A stretch of 64,000 bases of DNA, from the sequence record NC_054906.1, one strand, 5' to 3'. The notes below the pieces were generated by a model. It saw only the letters and a list, made by a program, of their open reading frames with translations. It was not told the DNA's origin and searched no databases. Within the stretch, counting starts at the first letter, position 1. The number at the start of each line of letters is the position of its first letter. Shown here piece after piece: positions 5,868 through 64,000 of the stretch. The stretch is from Enterobacteria phage RB18. Made by a program: the position numbers and the translations under genes.

Positions 5868-6392
5868 TTAAAGCAAATTAAACATTTTAACGGTCGGCAA
5901 AACAATTTCTTTTTCTATATAAGAGTATTTAACACTCTCAACTACGCGCAGAAAATCATAATCATAATATTCAGAAGCACTGCCTAAAATATTAATAAGT
6001 CCTTCAAGCACTTTATTACAATTCACAAAGAATAAGTCAAATACACGTTCTTCATCTTCTTCAGATTTATTACCAAGGTCAACTTCTATATCAAAGACCT
6101 TTTTAATGAATTCTGGATAAAGCTGGTCTGAGAACAGTCCTTCAACCAAGTATTCATAGATAAAAAGCGATTGCTCGCTGAACAAGCCATTACCACAATA
6201 ACGTTCAGCTTTAGTACTAGAATGTCTGCTTTTAAACTTCTTTAAAAGATATTGGAACTGTAAGATTTCATGCTCTTCTACGCCAAACAGTGTTTTAGTT
6301 TTATAGTTGTCACCATCATTTTCCCAGGTAGTGACATCAATTACGTAACCCTGCGGAATTGTAGTACCTAAACAAATATTCATTTTCACCAC
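5868..6392 (-). CDS. hypothetical protein (174 aa)
   Basis: ORF in minus-strand array upstream of the tRNA cluster. Confidence 0.5.
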   Translation of the reverse strand: MVKMNICLGTTIPQGYVIDVTTWENDGDNYKTKTLFGVEEHEILQFQYLLKKFKSRHSSTKAERYCGNGLFSEQSLFIYEYLVEGLFSDQLYPEFIKKVFDIEVDLGNKSEEDEERVFDLFFVNCNKVLEGLINILGSASEYYDYDFLRVVESVKYSYIEKEIVLPTVKMFNLL

Positions 6393-6682
6393 GCTGCATT
6401 AATATAAGTATATTTAATACATTCAAGACTTAAAGGATTCTTGAAAATATCATATTCAAGAGGACCTTTTTCTGTTTCAATAAAGAAATCAAAATTTACT
6501 GTATTAAATTTACGGTCTTCCTTCACTAATTTAACCTGAGAAGATGAACGGTCAATGTAAACCTTTTCAACTTCAAAACATGTTAAAATGCCATAATCAT
6601 CAATCAAGGCTTTAGCTGCTTCTTGATCATATTTATATCCATTTTCAATGGACGATACTTTCGCATAAAGTATCATTATCAA
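6386..6682 (-). CDS. hypothetical protein (98 aa)
   Basis: ORF with short start/stop overlaps to both neighbours. Confidence 0.5.
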   Translation of the reverse strand: MIMILYAKVSSIENGYKYDQEAAKALIDDYGILTCFEVEKVYIDRSSSQVKLVKEDRKFNTVNFDFFIETEKGPLEYDIFKNPLSLECIKYTYINAAW

Positions 6683-55725: not shown

Positions 55726-57783
55726 CTACATTTTGAACTTTTTAGACATTCCGTTGATGTTAACCAAAGAAGCTAAGATTTGAGAAACTTCGTTTTCCTC
55801 TTCTTTTGATTCTTCTACAAGGAATTGATTAAATCCAGCCATTGGACGAACTTCTCCGGTTTCCATTAGATAGTCACCATCATATACTGATTCTTCTAAT
55901 TGTTCAGAAGGAGGAACGATTGTACCTTCGATTAGATACTTGTTATAAGCAGTTTCTTTCATAAAGTAAGTACTTACTTTATTAATCTTCAGTAAAATTC
56001 CACGCGGTAGAATAACTTCAGCTTCTGATGGAAATCCTGTTAAATGACCTGGAACGATAACTTTGATTCGCTCAGCTCCTTTAATTACCATACCCACGCT
56101 AGTTTCAGCATCTTCATTAGCATATGTAGAATGACTACCCATATGCATCAAATCTTCTGCATCAACAGAACCTTCTCCTTCACCAGAAAATACTGCGCCG
56201 GAATCATCTAGAGCCATATAGTTTTTACCATGCTCACCGAAGATATTTGGTTTAAGTGATGTCGATACGAAGTTCTTGAAATAGAACATTTTGTTTTCAA
56301 TGTTATGACGCAAAGTTTTAAAGGTAACTTCTTGTCCACGATAAAGCGTAGTTCCTGGAGGAAGAACTGAACCTTTAGCGAATGCAGAATCCAACGTCTC
56401 GATGTGCTTAATAGCTCGTTCCATATATTCTTCACGGGTAGAATCTGGTTTACCCAAAAGGAACGAGTTCATTTCAACATATGAATCTGCACAATAATCT
56501 TCAATTACATCAGATTCAGCTTGAGTTAATCCTTTTGGAGTTACTTCGGTGCTTGCGTATTCATATGCCTGAGCAGCAGATTCATTAATCAATTTATAAA
56601 TGCCATTCATGACAAATTGAATAATAGCTGTCTTTTCATCTGGCGTAGCTTTAGAACCTTTAACCAAATCATTGATAATTTTCTTAATAACATCAAAGCT
56701 ATTAGAAATATTAATATCAGCAAGATCGCTTAAAATTTTATCAGTTTTATAATCAAAGAATTCTTTATTCTTTAAATATTCTTGAGAACCTTGATATGTT
56801 ATATCGCTCTGCAACTTGATGGATGGATCACGTAAACGTGCATGGGCTAATGCAATATGATTTCGGAAGTTTTCTAGTTCATAATCGCTAGATTTAAAAC
56901 GAGAAGCACTCCTCATACCACCGATAGCTCCTTTGTTGAAGTTTGAACCAATCTGAATAACGCCAGAGTTCATTGGTCCTTCTGCTTTATATACCGGAAC
57001 TTTGGATTCAAACTCTTGATATTTCTTAGCAGCGAAGCTATCACCCTGAAGTGAAGCATCAACAGTAGAATATTGAGCTTGTGCTGCTAATCGACGACTA
57101 ATTTTAGTTTTCTGAATAACAGCTTGGTCAGTGCGCTTATCATTTTCTAAAGCAATAGAAGCAGCAACTGCGACAGCTTTAGGAACAGCATTACCTGTTT
57201 TAACGTCTACATAAACATCACCAACCTTTGATTCAACTTTTGTGAATAACTCAGCTGAAATAGGAGGTACACCTGGAATGTCTTCTAAATTGGCATTTTT
57301 ACGGTAAACCATAATATATGCATATTTCTTATCATAGTCCCAGATTTCCTTTAAAAGAACATATCGGCCTGCTCCTTTAGTACGTACTAAACGGTCAGCA
57401 ATAACTTGCATTTGACGAGCAGCGCCATTTGTTTTACTCTTTAGTACGCGGAATAAGCATGCATCAATTTTATACTGTTTCATTGTTTGAAGAGCAGTAT
57501 CAAAAACAGCATTAATGACGCCAATTGGATTTCCACCCAAGTTTTTAAGCTTAACTAATGATAGTTTCTCATTAACACCTATCATTACGATATGCATCAT
57601 TTTGTCGCCTGGCTTAACGTTTTTATTCGTATCACCGCCAGAGGTGTATGTACAAAATCTAAATCCGGGGAGAACGCTTTCTTCACCGGCTTGAATAGCA
57701 AAAATTTGTGGTATTTTATGCTTAGGATTTAAGTTAACAACCGGCGCCGAAGCGCCGTCAAATAATTCTGTAATAAGTTCCAT
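55726..57783 (-). CDS. Alt-like ADP-ribosyltransferase paralog (685 aa)
   Basis: Paralogous to the upstream alt gene along its length (N-terminus MELITELFD..., shared blocks KYAYI..., NFVSTSL); ART motifs R (YRGQ), S-T-S (FVSTSL), E-x-E (SEAEVILPRG). Confidence 0.85.
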   Translation of the reverse strand: MELITELFDGASAPVVNLNPKHKIPQIFAIQAGEESVLPGFRFCTYTSGGDTNKNVKPGDKMMHIVMIGVNEKLSLVKLKNLGGNPIGVINAVFDTALQTMKQYKIDACLFRVLKSKTNGAARQMQVIADRLVRTKGAGRYVLLKEIWDYDKKYAYIMVYRKNANLEDIPGVPPISAELFTKVESKVGDVYVDVKTGNAVPKAVAVAASIALENDKRTDQAVIQKTKISRRLAAQAQYSTVDASLQGDSFAAKKYQEFESKVPVYKAEGPMNSGVIQIGSNFNKGAIGGMRSASRFKSSDYELENFRNHIALAHARLRDPSIKLQSDITYQGSQEYLKNKEFFDYKTDKILSDLADINISNSFDVIKKIINDLVKGSKATPDEKTAIIQFVMNGIYKLINESAAQAYEYASTEVTPKGLTQAESDVIEDYCADSYVEMNSFLLGKPDSTREEYMERAIKHIETLDSAFAKGSVLPPGTTLYRGQEVTFKTLRHNIENKMFYFKNFVSTSLKPNIFGEHGKNYMALDDSGAVFSGEGEGSVDAEDLMHMGSHSTYANEDAETSVGMVIKGAERIKVIVPGHLTGFPSEAEVILPRGILLKINKVSTYFMKETAYNKYLIEGTIVPPSEQLEESVYDGDYLMETGEVRPMAGFNQFLVEESKEEENEVSQILASLVNINGMSKKFKM

Positions 57784-57786
57784 GAT

Positions 57787-59880
57787 TTATCCTTGAACGA
57801 ACTTGTAAGGCATGTTTGTAATATCTATGCAAGACGCAATAATTCCAAGAGATGATTCTACTTTCTGTTTAACATTTGATGAAACAAATGATGCAAAGTC
57901 AACTCTGTCTTCTATTTCAATATCACCTGTCATTGCAACCAATTCACCAGTTTCCATTAAATGGTCTCCGTCATAGATTACCGATTCGGTGAGTTCTTCG
58001 GTGGTCATAACTTCAGCTTGAATGAGTTTTGTATTATTAGACGTGGTTCCGTCATTATTAGAAGCATCAGTTATTTTATTAACTTTGACCATCAATCCGC
58101 GCGGTAGAATAACTTCAGCTTCTGTTGCTATTCCGAGATTTCCTGGATATACAACATTAACTTTATGAGCTCCATCAATTGCCCATCCTATTTGAACTTT
58201 AACGTATTCAGGATTTTCTTTATACGCTCTTATTTCGCTTGGATTAATAGTTATTCCTTCTTCATTTTTATCAACTGTCAATTCATTACGAGCTTCTGGT
58301 TCTAAAAGACCAATACCAGCATGTGTAATTCCAAAACGTCCAAAAATGATAGGAGTTAAAGAAGTAGATACAAAATTTCTGAAATAGAACACTTTATTTT
58401 TAACTAGTGCTTCGTATATAGGAGCAGTCATACTTTGAGCACGATAAACTGTGATGCCTTCCGGTATGCGGTCACCATTTTCAAAAGCTGAATCTAAGTT
58501 ATTTATAGCAGATTCAATTTCTTTTTCACTCATTACATCATATCGTTCTGGATTGTAACGACCTAAAAGAAGATTATTGATGTCAGTATATCCTGAACCG
58601 CAATATTCTCTAATGCCACGCTTTTGTGATGGAGTATATTTAGAACCATCGCGGGCAATAGTAATATCAATCATTGGACCAGCACCAATTCCAGAAAAAC
58701 TGTAAATCATTCGTTTGAGGAATTTAGTTTTTGCTGCGTTCCAGGAATTTTTAGTTATTTCTTCCCAGACTTCATCTGGTTGTCCTTTACGATTTTTATT
58801 ATGATTAGCAAGCCATTTATCTTTATAATCTTCAAAGAATTGATTTACAGCTGCTGCGTATTTCTCTAAACATTTTATTGAAGTAGTTGGTTCATTTTTA
58901 ATTGCATTAAAAATTACTTCTTTAATTTTTTCTGAAACTTCACCGACTTGACTCATTGGAAAGAATTTATAATCATAGTGAAGTTCATCTGCCGTTCCTT
59001 CAGCAATAATTTTTGCTGCCTTTGTTTTAGAAGCTAATGAATTAATTCCAATTTTCATTTCTTCTGCTTCGGGAATTAAAGGTGCAGTAGCTGGTTTATT
59101 AAAATTAGCTGCTGTAGATTCATACTTCTGGAATAATTCACTTTCAAATCTAGAAGATTCCAATGACTGACTTTGTGCAATTGCTCTACGGGAAATTTTA
59201 ACTTTAACGATTACAGCTTGGTCAGAACGTTTATCATTTTCTTGCGCAATAGATGCTGCAATTGCCTCATTTTTAGTTACTTGGGCTCCAGTATCTTTAT
59301 TGATATAAACATCACCGACTTTCGATTCAACTTTAGTAAAGAGCTCGGTACTAATTTCCGGAACTCCTGGAATGTCTTCTAGTGATACATTTTTGCGATG
59401 TATAAGAATATATGCATACTTTTTATCGTAATCCCAGAGTTCCTTAAGAAGGACGTATCTACCACCTGAACGACTACGGATAAGTCTATCAGCAATAACT
59501 TGAATTTGTCGAGCTTGGCCAGCAGTTTTAGACTTAAGAATACGAAGCATACAAGCATCAATTTTATATTGACGCATTGTTTGCATTGCAACAGTAAAAA
59601 CTGAATTGATATAATTAATCGGGCTTGGACCAAGACCTTTTAATTTGGCAATTGAACCTTTAGCAGTTAATGTAAAAGGAACAATATGCATCATTTTATC
59701 GCCCATCTTTAAATCGCGATTAGTATCACCTCCAGATGTATAGGTACATAAACGAAAGCCTGGTTGTTCAATTGCATCATCAACATGAACTGAAAAAATT
59801 TGTGGTATTTTCTTCTTTGGATTTAAGTTTGTAATCGGAAGAGTAGTATCTTCGTCAAATAATTCTGTAATAAGTTCCAT
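57787..59880 (-). CDS. alt: Alt ADP-ribosyltransferase, virion-packaged (697 aa from second ATG)
   Basis: ART motifs R (YRAQ), S-T-S (FVSTSL), E-x-E (TEAEVILPRG); own TATAAATA late promoter; N-terminus MELITELFDE. Confidence 0.9.
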   Translation of the reverse strand: MELITELFDEDTTLPITNLNPKKKIPQIFSVHVDDAIEQPGFRLCTYTSGGDTNRDLKMGDKMMHIVPFTLTAKGSIAKLKGLGPSPINYINSVFTVAMQTMRQYKIDACMLRILKSKTAGQARQIQVIADRLIRSRSGGRYVLLKELWDYDKKYAYILIHRKNVSLEDIPGVPEISTELFTKVESKVGDVYINKDTGAQVTKNEAIAASIAQENDKRSDQAVIVKVKISRRAIAQSQSLESSRFESELFQKYESTAANFNKPATAPLIPEAEEMKIGINSLASKTKAAKIIAEGTADELHYDYKFFPMSQVGEVSEKIKEVIFNAIKNEPTTSIKCLEKYAAAVNQFFEDYKDKWLANHNKNRKGQPDEVWEEITKNSWNAAKTKFLKRMIYSFSGIGAGPMIDITIARDGSKYTPSQKRGIREYCGSGYTDINNLLLGRYNPERYDVMSEKEIESAINNLDSAFENGDRIPEGITVYRAQSMTAPIYEALVKNKVFYFRNFVSTSLTPIIFGRFGITHAGIGLLEPEARNELTVDKNEEGITINPSEIRAYKENPEYVKVQIGWAIDGAHKVNVVYPGNLGIATEAEVILPRGLMVKVNKITDASNNDGTTSNNTKLIQAEVMTTEELTESVIYDGDHLMETGELVAMTGDIEIEDRVDFASFVSSNVKQKVESSLGIIASCIDITNMPYKFVQG

Positions 59881-59903
59881 CATAGCCTCTCTAGTGTTTA
59901 TTC

Positions 59904-59911
59904 TATTTATA
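59904..59911 (-). promoter_or_regulatory. late promoter TATAAATA (minus strand) for alt
   Basis: Exact TATAAATA on minus strand 24 nt upstream of the alt ATG. Confidence 0.55.
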
Positions 59912-59919
59912 AAATTAAA

Positions 59920-59931
59920 GGCCCGAAGGCC
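59920..59931 (-). terminator. hairpin terminator (minus strand) after the gene 30 / alt.1 unit
   Basis: Minus strand GGCCTTCGGGCC followed by TTTAATTTT. Confidence 0.5.
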
Positions 59932-59932
59932 T

Positions 59933-60121
59933 TTAATAATCTAGTGGTAAGAGAGTACGGTATATTTCAAACTTTGGACCTTTTTCATAGGCATCAAATG
60001 TTTCTGTGAATTTATTATAAGCATATGCATCTACAAATTCGAGAATGACTTGTGATACAGAAGTAGAAACATCTCCACCTTCTTTTTGAGCAATGACAAT
60101 TGTTTCTAAGTAAGCTTTCAT
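59933..60121 (-). CDS. hypothetical protein (62 aa) between gene 30 and alt
   Basis: Small ORF overlapping the gene 30 stop by 4 nt. Confidence 0.55.
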   Translation of the reverse strand: MKAYLETIVIAQKEGGDVSTSVSQVILEFVDAYAYNKFTETFDAYEKGPKFEIYRTLLPLDY

Positions 60122-61581
60122 AAACCAGTTACCTCATGAAAATCACCAAATACATCCTCGAATGTATTAGCTTTAGTTTTATCTTCACGTAAACGAATCG
60201 CAATCGGAAGAAATAATTTAACGTAATCAGTGCGGCCATCAGATTTTAACCAACCGTTACATTCGCACTCTAGAATTTTTCCAATATAATAATTTTGGTT
60301 TTCCATAATGCGAGTACGGTCAAGTTCATGTGATTTTACGCCGGCTTTATCTTTTAAGCCTGAACCAGCATTTACCTTAATTTTTCCACACTCTGACTCA
60401 AGAATAAATCCACCCGCTTTAGTAGGGTCTTTACGGTGAGGATAAATTCCTACAATTTTTAAATCAACATCAATTACTTCTTTAAATTTATAGAGATTTT
60501 TTGAACGAGCATTTTCCCATAATCCATCGATATTTTTGAGAATAATACCTTCAAGACCTTGGTCAATATACTTTTTATAAATTACCTTAGCTTCATCTAG
60601 GTTATTTACTACTTGGTTTTCAATTAAAATTACTTTATCATATCCTGATGTCATTTGTTCTAGTTTAGAAAAACGTACATCATATTTTAAACGAAACACC
60701 GGAAGACCATATATTTCTACTAATGGAACATAGTCCCAGACCTGAAACTTCATGCATTGAGCTTCTTTTTCTGAAATAGTTCCCTTTAAAGATTTATTGG
60801 CGATGCCATTAGATGCAGTACGTGATTCAGCTACTTCGGCGAATTCTTTAGCTTTACTAATTTCAGGATAAGCATCAAAAAGAAAATCTAGGCCTTCTGG
60901 CTCCTTTTTAACTTGCTCATGGTATACCAATTCGCCATCAATTAACACACCTTCTGGATGAATCTGGCGGGCTTCAGCGGTCATTTTAATTAACTCTTCC
61001 TTAAGAAGATCTAATCCTAGATATTCATTACCAGCTCGTGATAAAAGACGAACATCATCTAATTCATCACCTCTGACTTCAGCAAAGCACCGAGCTCCAT
61101 CAGCTTTTAACTGGGCAAAAGCTGGAAATTTGATATTCTTATTAATGCCTTTTTCATCATAAGAACTTGCAAGCATTTGAGGTTGTTCAGGAATTAAACC
61201 TGGCCAAACTTTGTTTGCAATAGATACTGAAGCACCGCATTCAAGGTCTCGCATCATCACACGACGCAAAACTTCAACATCATCTTTTTTACCGTCAGTA
61301 ATATATCCAGTTAATTCCTCAATTGCCGCATTTCCAGTCAATTTCCGAGTAGCTAACGTTAATTCAATGAAGTCAAGCATATCGGTAAGAGTCAACATTC
61401 CAAAACTCTGGGTAGCAATACCCGGTTTAGGCCATTTCTTGATATAATACTGTAACCCGCGAGAATAAGTCAGACGATATACTCGTTTAAGCAATTCATT
61501 ATCTTTGTTCTTTTCAAGAATTGCTTGCTTCTGCTTAGTTGAACCAATAGATGCTATTTCGTTCAGAATTTTAAGAATCAT
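60118..61581 (-). CDS. 30: gp30 ATP-dependent DNA ligase (487 aa)
   Basis: Adenylation motif KADGARC; N-terminus MILKILNEIASIGSTKQKQAIL; size equals T4 DNA ligase. Confidence 0.97.
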   Translation of the reverse strand: MILKILNEIASIGSTKQKQAILEKNKDNELLKRVYRLTYSRGLQYYIKKWPKPGIATQSFGMLTLTDMLDFIELTLATRKLTGNAAIEELTGYITDGKKDDVEVLRRVMMRDLECGASVSIANKVWPGLIPEQPQMLASSYDEKGINKNIKFPAFAQLKADGARCFAEVRGDELDDVRLLSRAGNEYLGLDLLKEELIKMTAEARQIHPEGVLIDGELVYHEQVKKEPEGLDFLFDAYPEISKAKEFAEVAESRTASNGIANKSLKGTISEKEAQCMKFQVWDYVPLVEIYGLPVFRLKYDVRFSKLEQMTSGYDKVILIENQVVNNLDEAKVIYKKYIDQGLEGIILKNIDGLWENARSKNLYKFKEVIDVDLKIVGIYPHRKDPTKAGGFILESECGKIKVNAGSGLKDKAGVKSHELDRTRIMENQNYYIGKILECECNGWLKSDGRTDYVKLFLPIAIRLREDKTKANTFEDVFGDFHEVTGL

Positions 61582-61847
61582 TGTTCATCCTTTAGAGTTT
61601 GGTTTACAGCTCTATTATAAATCAATTCATCATTAAGCTCAGTCAAAGACCTGTGGTACGTGGTTCTAACTTTATTTCCTTGCATCCAGTGCTTGACGTA
61701 AATGAAACCTTGCTCTACACATTTTTTAAAAATTCGTTCGTCTTTTTGAGCTCGGAATTCTGGATTGCATCTAAAAAATTGATTTACGTGACCGTAATCA
61801 CGTGTAGTATTACCTTCATTTTCATAAATAGTGTGAACGACAAACAT
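61578..61847 (-). CDS. hypothetical protein (89 aa), 30.1 position
   Basis: ORF with ATGA-type overlaps on both sides. Confidence 0.6.
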   Translation of the reverse strand: MFVVHTIYENEGNTTRDYGHVNQFFRCNPEFRAQKDERIFKKCVEQGFIYVKHWMQGNKVRTTYHRSLTELNDELIYNRAVNQTLKDEQ

Positions 61848-62683
61848 TAGAATGCTCCTTGGAAAATATTATCACCACTAGTAGGTCTATTATACAAATA
61901 CTCTATGCCACCAGGTTTAATATAGTTCCATGTCTGAAACGGATGTGTCTGATATGGATGATATAGATTATAAGGATTAAATCCAGGAGTTCTCCAGGTA
62001 GTGTTCCAAGGAAAAGAATCATTTTTAATCATCTTTTCAATTACATCTTTTATAACTTTTTCACTATCAAAACTTTCTTTATTTTCCTTCGATGGAAAAA
62101 GCTTATTCTCTACATCATTCCATGTATAAACTCGCTGAGCGGTTTTTGGAATACTGTCACGCTCCCCTCGAGCCATCCAATAAACAGGAACATTTAATAT
62201 TTCACTCGCGTGATCGCAATGGTGAGCGAGATCGTCAATATAACAAATTACGTTATATTTCTCTTTTGCCTTTTTGAACAACTCTTCTTTTGAAGAATCA
62301 TGACCACACATCAATACTTCTGAGAAGGCACCAGGAAAAAGAGCATTCAAATTAAATTGACGATTCAGCAGAGCGTCAATAGAATCACCCAATGCTGTAA
62401 CAGCTACAAAATTATAATCTTCTTTTAATTTGTTAATTACACACAGGGCATCTTTATATGGAGACAAGTAACGAATAAAATCTGAACGATTATACTTTTC
62501 GATTAATTTAACACCGAGTTCTTCATCGCAATTAAAGAGCTTACCAGGAGAAATAAATTTTTCGTCCTGAATCATTTTTAAAATATGTTCCAACGGAAGA
62601 TTATATTTTTGGGCAAAATAAGGAAGGCCCGATTGCCAGCTTAAACATACCCCGTCAATATCAGTCAAAATAGTAGGCTTCAT
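61847..62683 (-). CDS. HAD-superfamily phosphatase-like protein (278 aa), 30.2 position
   Basis: HAD motif I LTDIDGV near N-terminus and a later IDDL acid motif. Confidence 0.6.
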   Translation of the reverse strand: MKPTILTDIDGVCLSWQSGLPYFAQKYNLPLEHILKMIQDEKFISPGKLFNCDEELGVKLIEKYNRSDFIRYLSPYKDALCVINKLKEDYNFVAVTALGDSIDALLNRQFNLNALFPGAFSEVLMCGHDSSKEELFKKAKEKYNVICYIDDLAHHCDHASEILNVPVYWMARGERDSIPKTAQRVYTWNDVENKLFPSKENKESFDSEKVIKDVIEKMIKNDSFPWNTTWRTPGFNPYNLYHPYQTHPFQTWNYIKPGGIEYLYNRPTSGDNIFQGAF

Positions 62684-63144
62684 AGAGAGTCTCTTAATAG
62701 GTTTAACACATCAATAAATTCAGCTTCGGTTAGTATTGTATCATCTTTTGTTAGACCGCTGGCCATGCTGTGCTTCAAAATTTTTCCTTTAGAGGCTTGT
62801 AAGGCATCACGAAACCCCTTGTTTTGAATCGCTGCTTCAAAATATGCATTTGTGTACAACTCTTTCCACGCTGGTGAGTATCTTGAAAACGGAACTCCAA
62901 GCCAGAAGAGGGTCCCACGGTCCTGAGCTCTAGCATAAGACCTTCCAGCTTGTTGGGCGGCAAGCCCGGATAACCCAAATATACGTCTTTGCTGCTCAAC
63001 ATTTTTCACCTTGCATCCTTGGAGGAATCCTTCGAGACCTCCAAATTGAATACCATCCATGACGAAAGGCCATTGGGCGAAATTACTTAATGCGCATGAT
63101 GGCCATCTAAAATTGCTTCTAATCTCTAACTCAGACATTTTCAA
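62680..63144 (-). CDS. NADAR / YbiA-like (DUF1768) domain protein (154 aa), 30.3 position
   Basis: Block LSNFAQWPFVMDGIQF...EGFLQGCK matches the YbiA/NADAR signature FSNFAxWP..VDG...E.YFQ..K as recalled. Confidence 0.55.
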   Translation of the reverse strand: MKMSELEIRSNFRWPSCALSNFAQWPFVMDGIQFGGLEGFLQGCKVKNVEQQRRIFGLSGLAAQQAGRSYARAQDRGTLFWLGVPFSRYSPAWKELYTNAYFEAAIQNKGFRDALQASKGKILKHSMASGLTKDDTILTEAEFIDVLNLLRDSL

Positions 63145-63337
63145 TACTTATAATTTCAACATCAGCCCAATGACCATAACAAGGAAGACGAAATTCAACT
63201 GGCCAGTTAGGGTCCTTTTCTAATATAATAGACTTAACTTGTGGTTCTTCATGTTCATCAGTATATGGATTTTTATCTGTTACTTTATATGTGACCTTAA
63301 TGTACTGAATTCCAAAAATCTTATTAATTATATTCAT
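63131..63337 (-). CDS. hypothetical protein (68 aa)
   Basis: Small ORF in the 30.x array with overlapping start/stop. Confidence 0.5.
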   Translation of the reverse strand: MNIINKIFGIQYIKVTYKVTDKNPYTDEHEEPQVKSIILEKDPNWPVEFRLPCYGHWADVEIISIENV

Positions 63338-63531
63338 GCTAATTCCTTTAATCCGTAAATAGGAGATAATTCATCACCCATACGAAGGTCTTCATTTCCA
63401 TCTACCCAGGAAACAATATAAGCCTCTTTTATTTGAACACCACTCCATTTAAATGGAGGTAGAACCTTAGAAATTAATCCAGGTATACCAACTCCCTTTA
63501 ATTCAACAGTTTGACCTAAAAAGAATTTCAT
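63334..63531 (-). CDS. hypothetical protein (65 aa)
   Basis: Small ORF in the 30.x array with overlapping start/stop. Confidence 0.5.
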   Translation of the reverse strand: MKFFLGQTVELKGVGIPGLISKVLPPFKWSGVQIKEAYIVSWVDGNEDLRMGDELSPIYGLKELA

Positions 63532-63818
63532 TAGAACCTCATCTGAAAACCGTGCGATTTAACATTACCACCGCCAATATCAGAAATGTTAATTTCACTC
63601 GCAATTGAAGGGTCAATGTCAATTTCACGATTAAGTTTAGTGATAGCTAAAGTATCGCGCCCATTTACAGTACGGAACTCTAAAGGGCAGACTACATTAA
63701 CGTAGTTTTTAATCGATTCACTGGTAGGCTGCAAATGAGCAGGAAGGTCTTTGGGCGCCTTTGAGAAAACAACTTCACAGAAATTTTTGCGGGTGTCAAA
63801 ATAAGTAGTCATAAACAT
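63531..63818 (-). CDS. hypothetical protein (95 aa from the ATG at 63818)
   Basis: Track ORF extends to 63854 but that start lies inside the GGGGCCGAAGCCCC hairpin; the ATG at 63818 has a GAGGA Shine-Dalgarno. Confidence 0.5.
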   Translation of the reverse strand: MFMTTYFDTRKNFCEVVFSKAPKDLPAHLQPTSESIKNYVNVVCPLEFRTVNGRDTLAITKLNREIDIDPSIASEINISDIGGGNVKSHGFQMRF

Positions 63819-63835
63819 AATATTTTCCTCAGTAA

Positions 63836-63849
63836 GGGGCCGAAGCCCC
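63836..63849 (-). terminator. GC hairpin GGGGCCGAAGCCCC (third identical copy), terminator or RNA-stability element
   Basis: Identical 14-mer to 1399..1412 and 43321..43334. Confidence 0.45.
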
Positions 63850-64000
63850 CTCATTCATTTTAAATATCAAATTCGTTAAGAACTACATCAAAGATTGCTT
63901 CAAGATGCTCAGGTTTAGCTCTGTTACTCAGAATATGACGAATCCAAGTTTTAACCAAAAGCTTGCGATTAACGCCATTCCAGCAAGGATGAGTCCCTAA

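Follow-up and report, generated by a model that had tools for sequence, protein, structure and literature searches.

Gene 30.3 of Enterobacteria phage RB18 probably encodes an AdfN-type NADAR enzyme acting against DarT1 modification of phage DNA

What is encoded upstream of the DNA ligase gene of phage RB18, and which function does it serve? In the 64,000-nucleotide stretch of record NC_054906.1 analysed here (the window), an earlier sequence-only reading had proposed that the minus-strand frame at 62680..63144 specifies a 154-residue NADAR/YbiA-like protein, next to DNA ligase and two ADP-ribosyltransferases. The locus belongs to a T4-like (Tequatrovirus) genome and has the gene order 30.4-30.3-30.2-30.1-30, as in T4. 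A 1-kb stretch around 30.3 matches 671 phage records, mostly of Escherichia and Shigella T4-like phages, with up to 97.7% identity. All the genes around it lie on the minus strand. On one side are 30.4 (63131-63337), 30.5 (63334-63531) and 30.6, listed as an open reading frame at 63531-63854; as T4 30.6 has 95 residues, the real start of this gene is probably internal to the listed frame. On the other side are 30.2 (61847-62683), 30.1 (61578-61847), the ligase gene 30 (60118-61581), alt.1 (59933-60121) and two genes for Alt-type ADP-ribosyltransferases (PF03496) of 698 residues (57787-59883) and 685 residues (55726-57783). The proposed adjacency is thus correct at the level of the region only: 30.2 and 30.1 intervene between 30.3 and the ligase gene, and the Alt-type genes are 2.8-7 kb off, past the ligase gene and alt.1. 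The two Alt-type paralogues of RB18 form a tandem, are both full-length and are 41% identical, whereas in T4 the position of the second one is taken up by nothing more than two short remnants, alt.-1 and alt.-2; the T4 annotation describes these as an old partial alt duplication.

An open reading frame is indeed present at 62680..63144 (-) in the ORF listing of the window, and the block quoted in the sequence-only reading is real: LSNFAQWPFVMDGIQF and EGFLQGCK correspond to residues 17-32 and 36-43 of the frame at 62680..63138, in the numbering of a 152-residue protein. The length of 154 residues, in contrast, stems from an upstream in-frame TTG. The listing opens each frame at the first ATG, GTG or TTG that follows a stop and therefore took the TTG at 63144, which adds two codons, TTG AAA (63139..63144, -), upstream of the ATG. 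T4 30.3 is annotated from the ATG (NC_000866 128307..128765, 459 nt, 152 residues), which is equivalent to 62680..63138 of the window, and the published numbering of E36 and K43 is compatible with this start only. The likely start of 30.3 is thus the ATG at 63138, giving a coding sequence at 62680..63138 (-) of 152 codons plus the stop, and the codons at 63139..63144 are probably outside the translated gene.

Sequence and ORF coordinates show that 30.3 overlaps its neighbours at both ends. Within ATGTCTGA (63131..63138, -), its start codon shares nucleotides with the stop codon of 30.4, the gene upstream, which suggests translational coupling, and its stop codon overlaps the start of the downstream 30.2 in an ATGA (62680..62683, -), as it does in T4. 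The gene is thus located inside a tightly packed co-directional array. Scanning of the interval 59800-64000 for promoters and terminators gave counts that were not above those of shuffled sequence and thus provides no basis for assigning 30.3 a transcription signal of its own. At the DNA level, RB18 and T4 30.3 differ at 22 of 459 nucleotides; 20 of these differences fall on third codon positions and two change an amino acid, a pattern that indicates strong purifying selection on the 30.3 frame. The T4 record NC_000866 also contains a CDS named 30.3', described as 'internal translation in a different reading frame'. Its counterpart in RB18 is a 75-codon frame, shifted by +1 and contained within 30.3 (62775..63002, -). 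The 13 nucleotide differences between RB18 and T4 over this stretch alter 12 of the 75 residues of 30.3' and a single residue of gp30.3, and in a Dhakavirus the ATG of 30.3' is shifted by one codon. As purifying selection is not apparent in this frame, 30.3' is probably not a selected protein and was judged unlikely as a second gene product.

The protein encoded by 30.3 is nearly the same as its T4 counterpart. The two share 150 of 152 residues (99% identity), as well as length, genomic position, gene overlaps, residues E36, K43 and H123 and a C-terminal helix; the two differences, V120I and I125M, are both conservative. We compared RB18 gp30.3 with 84 homologues in an alignment of 85 full-length sequences, which shows that both substitutions occur at naturally variable positions, position 125 being M in 38 sequences and I in 39. 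A protein identical to RB18 gp30.3 is encoded by phage UoN_LDJ77_1. Used as a single sequence, RB18 gp30.3 matches the Pfam family PF08010 (Phage_30_3) over the whole profile (positions 1-138 of 138) with E=5.3e-70 and 234 bits, the cut-off being 36. Judged by sequence, RB18 30.3 is orthologous to the T4 gene, now called adfN, and its product belongs to the T4-type PF08010/AdfN family and to the NADAR superfamily.

The gp30.3 family is widespread. Our homologue search retrieved 104 relatives, all carrying PF08010, and several JGI entries among the homologues bear the source name 'YbiA (DUF1768 family)'. Members were found in 1,509 of 50,697 phage records, with hosts that include Escherichia, Klebsiella, Aeromonas, Acinetobacter and Vibrio. 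Among the records listed, the feature under the match is nearly always labelled 'hypothetical protein'; in Klebsiella phage Roth16 the label is 'anti-CBASS protein acb1', apparently a mis-annotation. Many homologue clusters consist of truncated fragments of 86-126 residues. Others also match PF06919, PF06019, PF11097 or PF26911, which are unrelated phage protein families, and these additional matches suggest fusions. Together, truncated and fused clusters (P0004-P0007, P0013-P0018, P0053 and P0093) point to recurrent frameshifts and deletions in the array, comparable to the crippled allele of phage RB69 described below.

The relationship of gp30.3 to NADAR proteins is remote in sequence. The single RB18 protein fails to match PF08719, the Pfam model for NADAR, with the threshold relaxed to E<=1, finds one chance match only among PDB sequences (E=0.66) and has no match in NCBIfam. 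A simple Pfam test for NADAR, as had been proposed for this protein, would thus be a false negative, and it takes profile and structure methods to reveal the relationship, which we examined along three independent lines. When the 85 members of the family alignment were scanned individually, 31 of them matched PF08719, with a best E value of 1.5e-7. Searching the PDB with the family profile gave E. coli YbiA (2b3w) as the best match (E=0.0065), over the segment that runs from LSNF to the E...Q..K residues. Direct comparison of the family profile with E. coli K-12 YbiA by hhalign led to a probability of 94.4% and E=9.3e-8 over 91 columns. Finally, the structure predicted for gp30.3 (AF2 model) confidently matches the NADAR fold, which it shares with YbiA. 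Fold, profile homology and catalytic residues thus support the assignment of RB18 gp30.3 to the NADAR superfamily, and bear out the NADAR/YbiA-like domain first proposed.

None of the conserved catalytic residues has been lost in RB18. Residues invariant in all 85 aligned sequences include P13, A16, L17, S18, N19, F20, F25, E36, G37, F38 and Q40, and also Q50, H123, T134, L136 and T137, while K43 is kept in 83 of 85. The invariant LSNF motif (codons 17-20, 63079..63090, -) faces FSNF in the alignment with E. coli YbiA. The glutamate and the lysine of an E-x3-Q-x2-K motif, aligned to 'EHYFQAQK' of YbiA, are conserved in the family: E36, the catalytic glutamate (codon GAA, 63031..63033, -), faces the glutamate of YbiA 'SEHYFQAQK', and K43, the lysine that contacts the ADP-ribose phosphate (codon AAG, 63010..63012, -), faces the YbiA lysine. 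These two residues are equivalent to E43 and K50 of the P. nicotianae NADAR, both in contact with ADP-ribose, and their counterparts in E. coli C7 DarG1 are E88 and K95, the mutation of which impairs guanine de-ADP-ribosylation (PMC11543638). The invariant H123 (codon CAC, 62770..62772, -) follows the last strand and marks the phage gp30.3 subfamily. It lies one residue beyond the end of the hhalign match and, when the match is extended by one, stands opposite the glutamate of YbiA 'KLVEH', so that 'KLVEH' is replaced by 'ILKHS' in gp30.3 at the catalytic position of the last strand. This third catalytic position is a glutamate in YbiA, an aspartate in BC4488/DarG1 proteins and a histidine in phage gp30.3 (PMC11543638, PMC11125620). 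At the end of the protein, codons 138-151 (62686..62727, -) form an alpha-helix in the AF2 model, which is needed for full activity (PMC11825919). Residues 138-152 are identical in RB18 and T4, showing that the helix is complete in RB18 gp30.3.

The function of 30.3 is already known from T4: publications of the years 2012 to 2025 cover its fold, its chemistry and its biological role, and the RB18 allele is essentially the T4 protein. De Souza and Aravind had placed gp30.3 in the NADAR superfamily by bioinformatics, as cited in PMC11543638. Johannesman et al. (Nat Commun 2025) mapped the resistance of T2 and T4 to DarTG1 to 30.3, which they renamed adfN, for anti-DarT factor NADAR, and identified its product as a guanine-specific DNA ADP-ribosylglycohydrolase (PMC11825919). 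T2 and T4 lacking adfN form no plaques on DarTG1 hosts, the gene being dispensable on hosts without DarTG1 and essential on hosts that carry it. Ectopic adfN fully rescues the DarTG1-sensitive phage RB69, whose own 30.3 allele has lost the last 15 residues through a frameshift. In vitro, purified AdfN takes ADP-ribose off DNA, an activity that E36A abolishes; E36A, K43A and a C-terminal truncation all weaken rescue. AdfN neither binds DarT1 nor affects the thymidine-modifying DarTG2 (all PMC11825919). In an independent study, Cihlova et al. (Toxins 2024) showed that the T4 phage NADAR hydrolyses guanine-ADP-ribose in vitro (PMC11125620), and the HIDEN-SEQ preprint of 2025 reports that T4 30.3/adfN transposon insertions are lost specifically on DarTG1 hosts (10.1101/2025.11.20.689424).

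RB18 30.3, with its orthology to the T4 gene, its NADAR fold, its intact E36, K43, H123 and C-terminal helix and the purifying selection on its frame, thus very probably encodes an AdfN orthologue, a stand-alone NADAR enzyme that reverses the ADP-ribosylation of guanines introduced into phage DNA by DarT1. Upon infection of a DarTG1-carrying cell, the DarT1 toxin would ADP-ribosylate guanines of the phage DNA and block replication; AdfN would hydrolyse the bond between guanine and ADP-ribose, restoring normal DNA and allowing replication to proceed. With this enzyme the phage would bring along an 'orphan antitoxin', one that does not bind the toxin itself. The removal of ADP-ribose from DNA guanines against DarT-like toxins, one of the roles the sequence-only reading had suggested, is experimentally established for the 99%-identical T4 protein (PMC11825919, PMC11125620, 10.1101/2025.11.20.689424), and we infer that the RB18 allele would behave as T4 AdfN does, including protection from DarTG1.

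Comparison with characterized NADAR proteins sets gp30.3 apart from DarG1 and YbiA. DarG1 antitoxins (BC4488-type NADARs, such as those of E. coli C7 and Geobacter lovleyi, 8bat) are encoded beside DarT1, whereas RB18 30.3 is an orphan: no DarT1 toxin gene lies beside it, its neighbours being 30.4, 30.2, 30.1 and the ligase gene, and the ADP-ribosyltransferases of the region are all of the Alt type (PF03496). The catalytic aspartate of DarG1 is replaced by the invariant histidine in the gp30.3 family, and gp30.3 is smaller (152 residues against 219 in DarG1 8bat). Membership of the DarG1/BC4488 subfamily was rejected on two of these grounds, the lack of an adjacent DarT1 and the histidine in place of aspartate. 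In uninfected cells, moreover, T4 AdfN cannot replace DarG1 (PMC11825919, PMC11125620). In its mode of action gp30.3 resembles DarG1, of which it is not a member. Nor does it belong to the YbiA subfamily. E. coli YbiA (2b3w) and the P. nicotianae NADAR (8bau), both of the YbiA subfamily (PF08719), are about 20% identical to gp30.3, in which the glutamate of the YbiA 'LVEH' is a histidine. In E. coli, YbiA is encoded in a LexA-controlled host operon beside dinG, is linked to riboflavin metabolism and does not protect cells from DarT1 (PMC11125620).

AdfN proteins are also known from phages Bas32 (T5-like) and Bas60 (Vequintavirinae). Like gp30.3, these are phage-encoded orphan NADARs that are guanine-specific and neutralise DarTG1; they were independently acquired, however, and belong to other NADAR clades. 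They are also active outside any phage context, in contrast to the T4-type protein, which reaches full activity in T-even infection only. Two further anti-DarTG factors of the same phage group, AdfA (T4 gp61.2) and AdfM (the macrodomain protein T4 Tk.4), are not homologues of gp30.3. The R164H variant of RB69 AdfA binds DarT1, in contrast to the enzymatic reversal carried out by AdfN (PMC11825919), and the AdfM macrodomain targets the thymidine-ADP-ribose made by DarTG2 (10.1101/2025.11.20.689424).

We weighed the restoration of phage DNA against other explanations of the gene. If gp30.3 regulated ADP-ribosylation by the phage itself, as also considered in the sequence-only reading, its main role would be the erasing or tuning of the modifications made by the two Alt paralogues nearby and by ModA and ModB, encoded elsewhere. 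The two full-length Alt-type enzymes (PF03496) encoded 2.8-7 kb away in the same early region could be taken in its favour, and the restriction of full T4 AdfN activity to T-even infection could hint at a phage-internal role. However, the targets of Alt and Mod enzymes are proteins, with arginine as the main site of modification, and no Alt gene was found near the family members of RB43 and of metagenomic phage contigs within the flanking stretches examined. The NADARs tested so far act on guanine-ADP-ribose in DNA and not on thymidine-ADP-ribose (PMC11825919, PMC11543638, PMC11125620), and the requirement for 30.3 in the presence of DarTG1 only (PMC11825919, 10.1101/2025.11.20.689424) leaves this role without support. 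We consider it very unlikely.

It is highly improbable that gp30.3 is instead a YbiA-like metabolite N-glycosidase, detoxifying reactive intermediates of the riboflavin pathway as the product of an auxiliary metabolic gene. Fold and Glu/Lys motifs are common to gp30.3 and E. coli YbiA, and an N-glycosidase role of YbiA in riboflavin metabolism has been published (as cited in PMC11543638 and PMC11125620). Yet the glutamate that defines the YbiA subfamily is an invariant histidine in gp30.3, no riboflavin genes lie nearby, and the T4 protein has been shown to de-ADP-ribosylate DNA and has a phenotype specific to DarTG1 (PMC11825919, 10.1101/2025.11.20.689424). As for a chance resemblance of motifs or an inactive remnant allele, the missing PF08719 match of the single sequence, the numerous truncated or fused clusters in public data and the crippled RB69 allele could all be read that way. 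RB18 gp30.3, however, is full length and retains every invariant residue, its AF2 model matches the fold confidently and its substitution pattern is that of strong purifying selection, which leaves this explanation a practically negligible probability.

A mechanism in which the enzyme alone is enough is nevertheless incomplete. In E. coli cells that are not infected, T4 AdfN fails to neutralise DarT1, and its rescue of T5 and Bas25 is only weak (PMC11825919, PMC11125620). Its full activity is seen during T-even infection only, DNA hypermodification has been ruled out as the reason, and Johannesman et al. suggest an additional T-even factor (PMC11825919). A phage-encoded partner of T4-type AdfN might be sought in gp30.2, which could bring AdfN to the DNA of the phage or process the ADP-ribose once it is set free. 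The 278-residue gp30.2 is annotated as 'hypothetical' in T4, and the start of its gene overlaps the 30.3 stop. It displays the motif layout of HAD phosphatases (D8-x-D10, T96, K132, D150-D151), conserved across four diverged phages and kept in Tequatrovirus, Dhakavirus and Acinetobacter phage Acj61, and on this motif pattern alone gp30.2 is a putative HAD phosphatase. A C-terminal extension of about 80 residues, rich in Pro, Trp and Tyr, is found in the Tequatrovirus proteins (RB18, T4) only. Searches of Pfam, PHROGs and NCBIfam gave weak matches to HAD_PNKP (E=0.17) and to the polynucleotide kinase phrog_415 (E=0.0037), and a PDB search a 5'(3')-deoxyribonucleotidase at E of about 0.4-1. Nothing significant was found in the PDB with a profile of four gp30.2 sequences, and the single-sequence AF2 model (pLDDT 38) yielded no usable fold.

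The linkage 30.3-30.2-ligase is kept in Tequatrovirus, a Dhakavirus and Acinetobacter phage Acj61, and is absent from RB43 and the distant metagenomic homologues within the flanking stretches examined. Over these same stretches, the RB43 and metagenomic homologues have neither neighbours in common nor a ligase or Alt gene nearby. Two of the metagenomic homologues, both at 6001-6468 of the stretches examined (L003, from a 308-kb contig, and L006, from an 82-kb contig), are 38% identical and lie on phage-like contigs, among arrays of small unannotated frames without ligase, 30.2 or Alt neighbours. In L003, nearby genes encode a Thg1-like enzyme as well as a NUDIX hydrolase; those near the L006 homologue include genes for a GGDEF protein and for SprT-like proteins. 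A 254-residue gene downstream in L003 was considered as a counterpart of gp30.2 and rejected, being unrelated to it. The available part of the T4 transposon preprint names 30.3/adfN as the sole DarTG1 hit and does not mention 30.2 (10.1101/2025.11.20.689424). With this and the unproductive profile and structure attempts, a partnership between gp30.2 and AdfN is a speculation to which we give a low probability.

RB18, which carries an intact adfN, is predicted to be resistant to DarTG1, while phages with truncated or fused gp30.3 are predicted to be sensitive. The status of adfN is thus relevant to the choice of therapeutic T4-like phages against DarTG1-carrying strains. The practical value of the present assignment is one of annotation, as nearly all of the listed phage records still call gp30.3 a 'hypothetical protein'.
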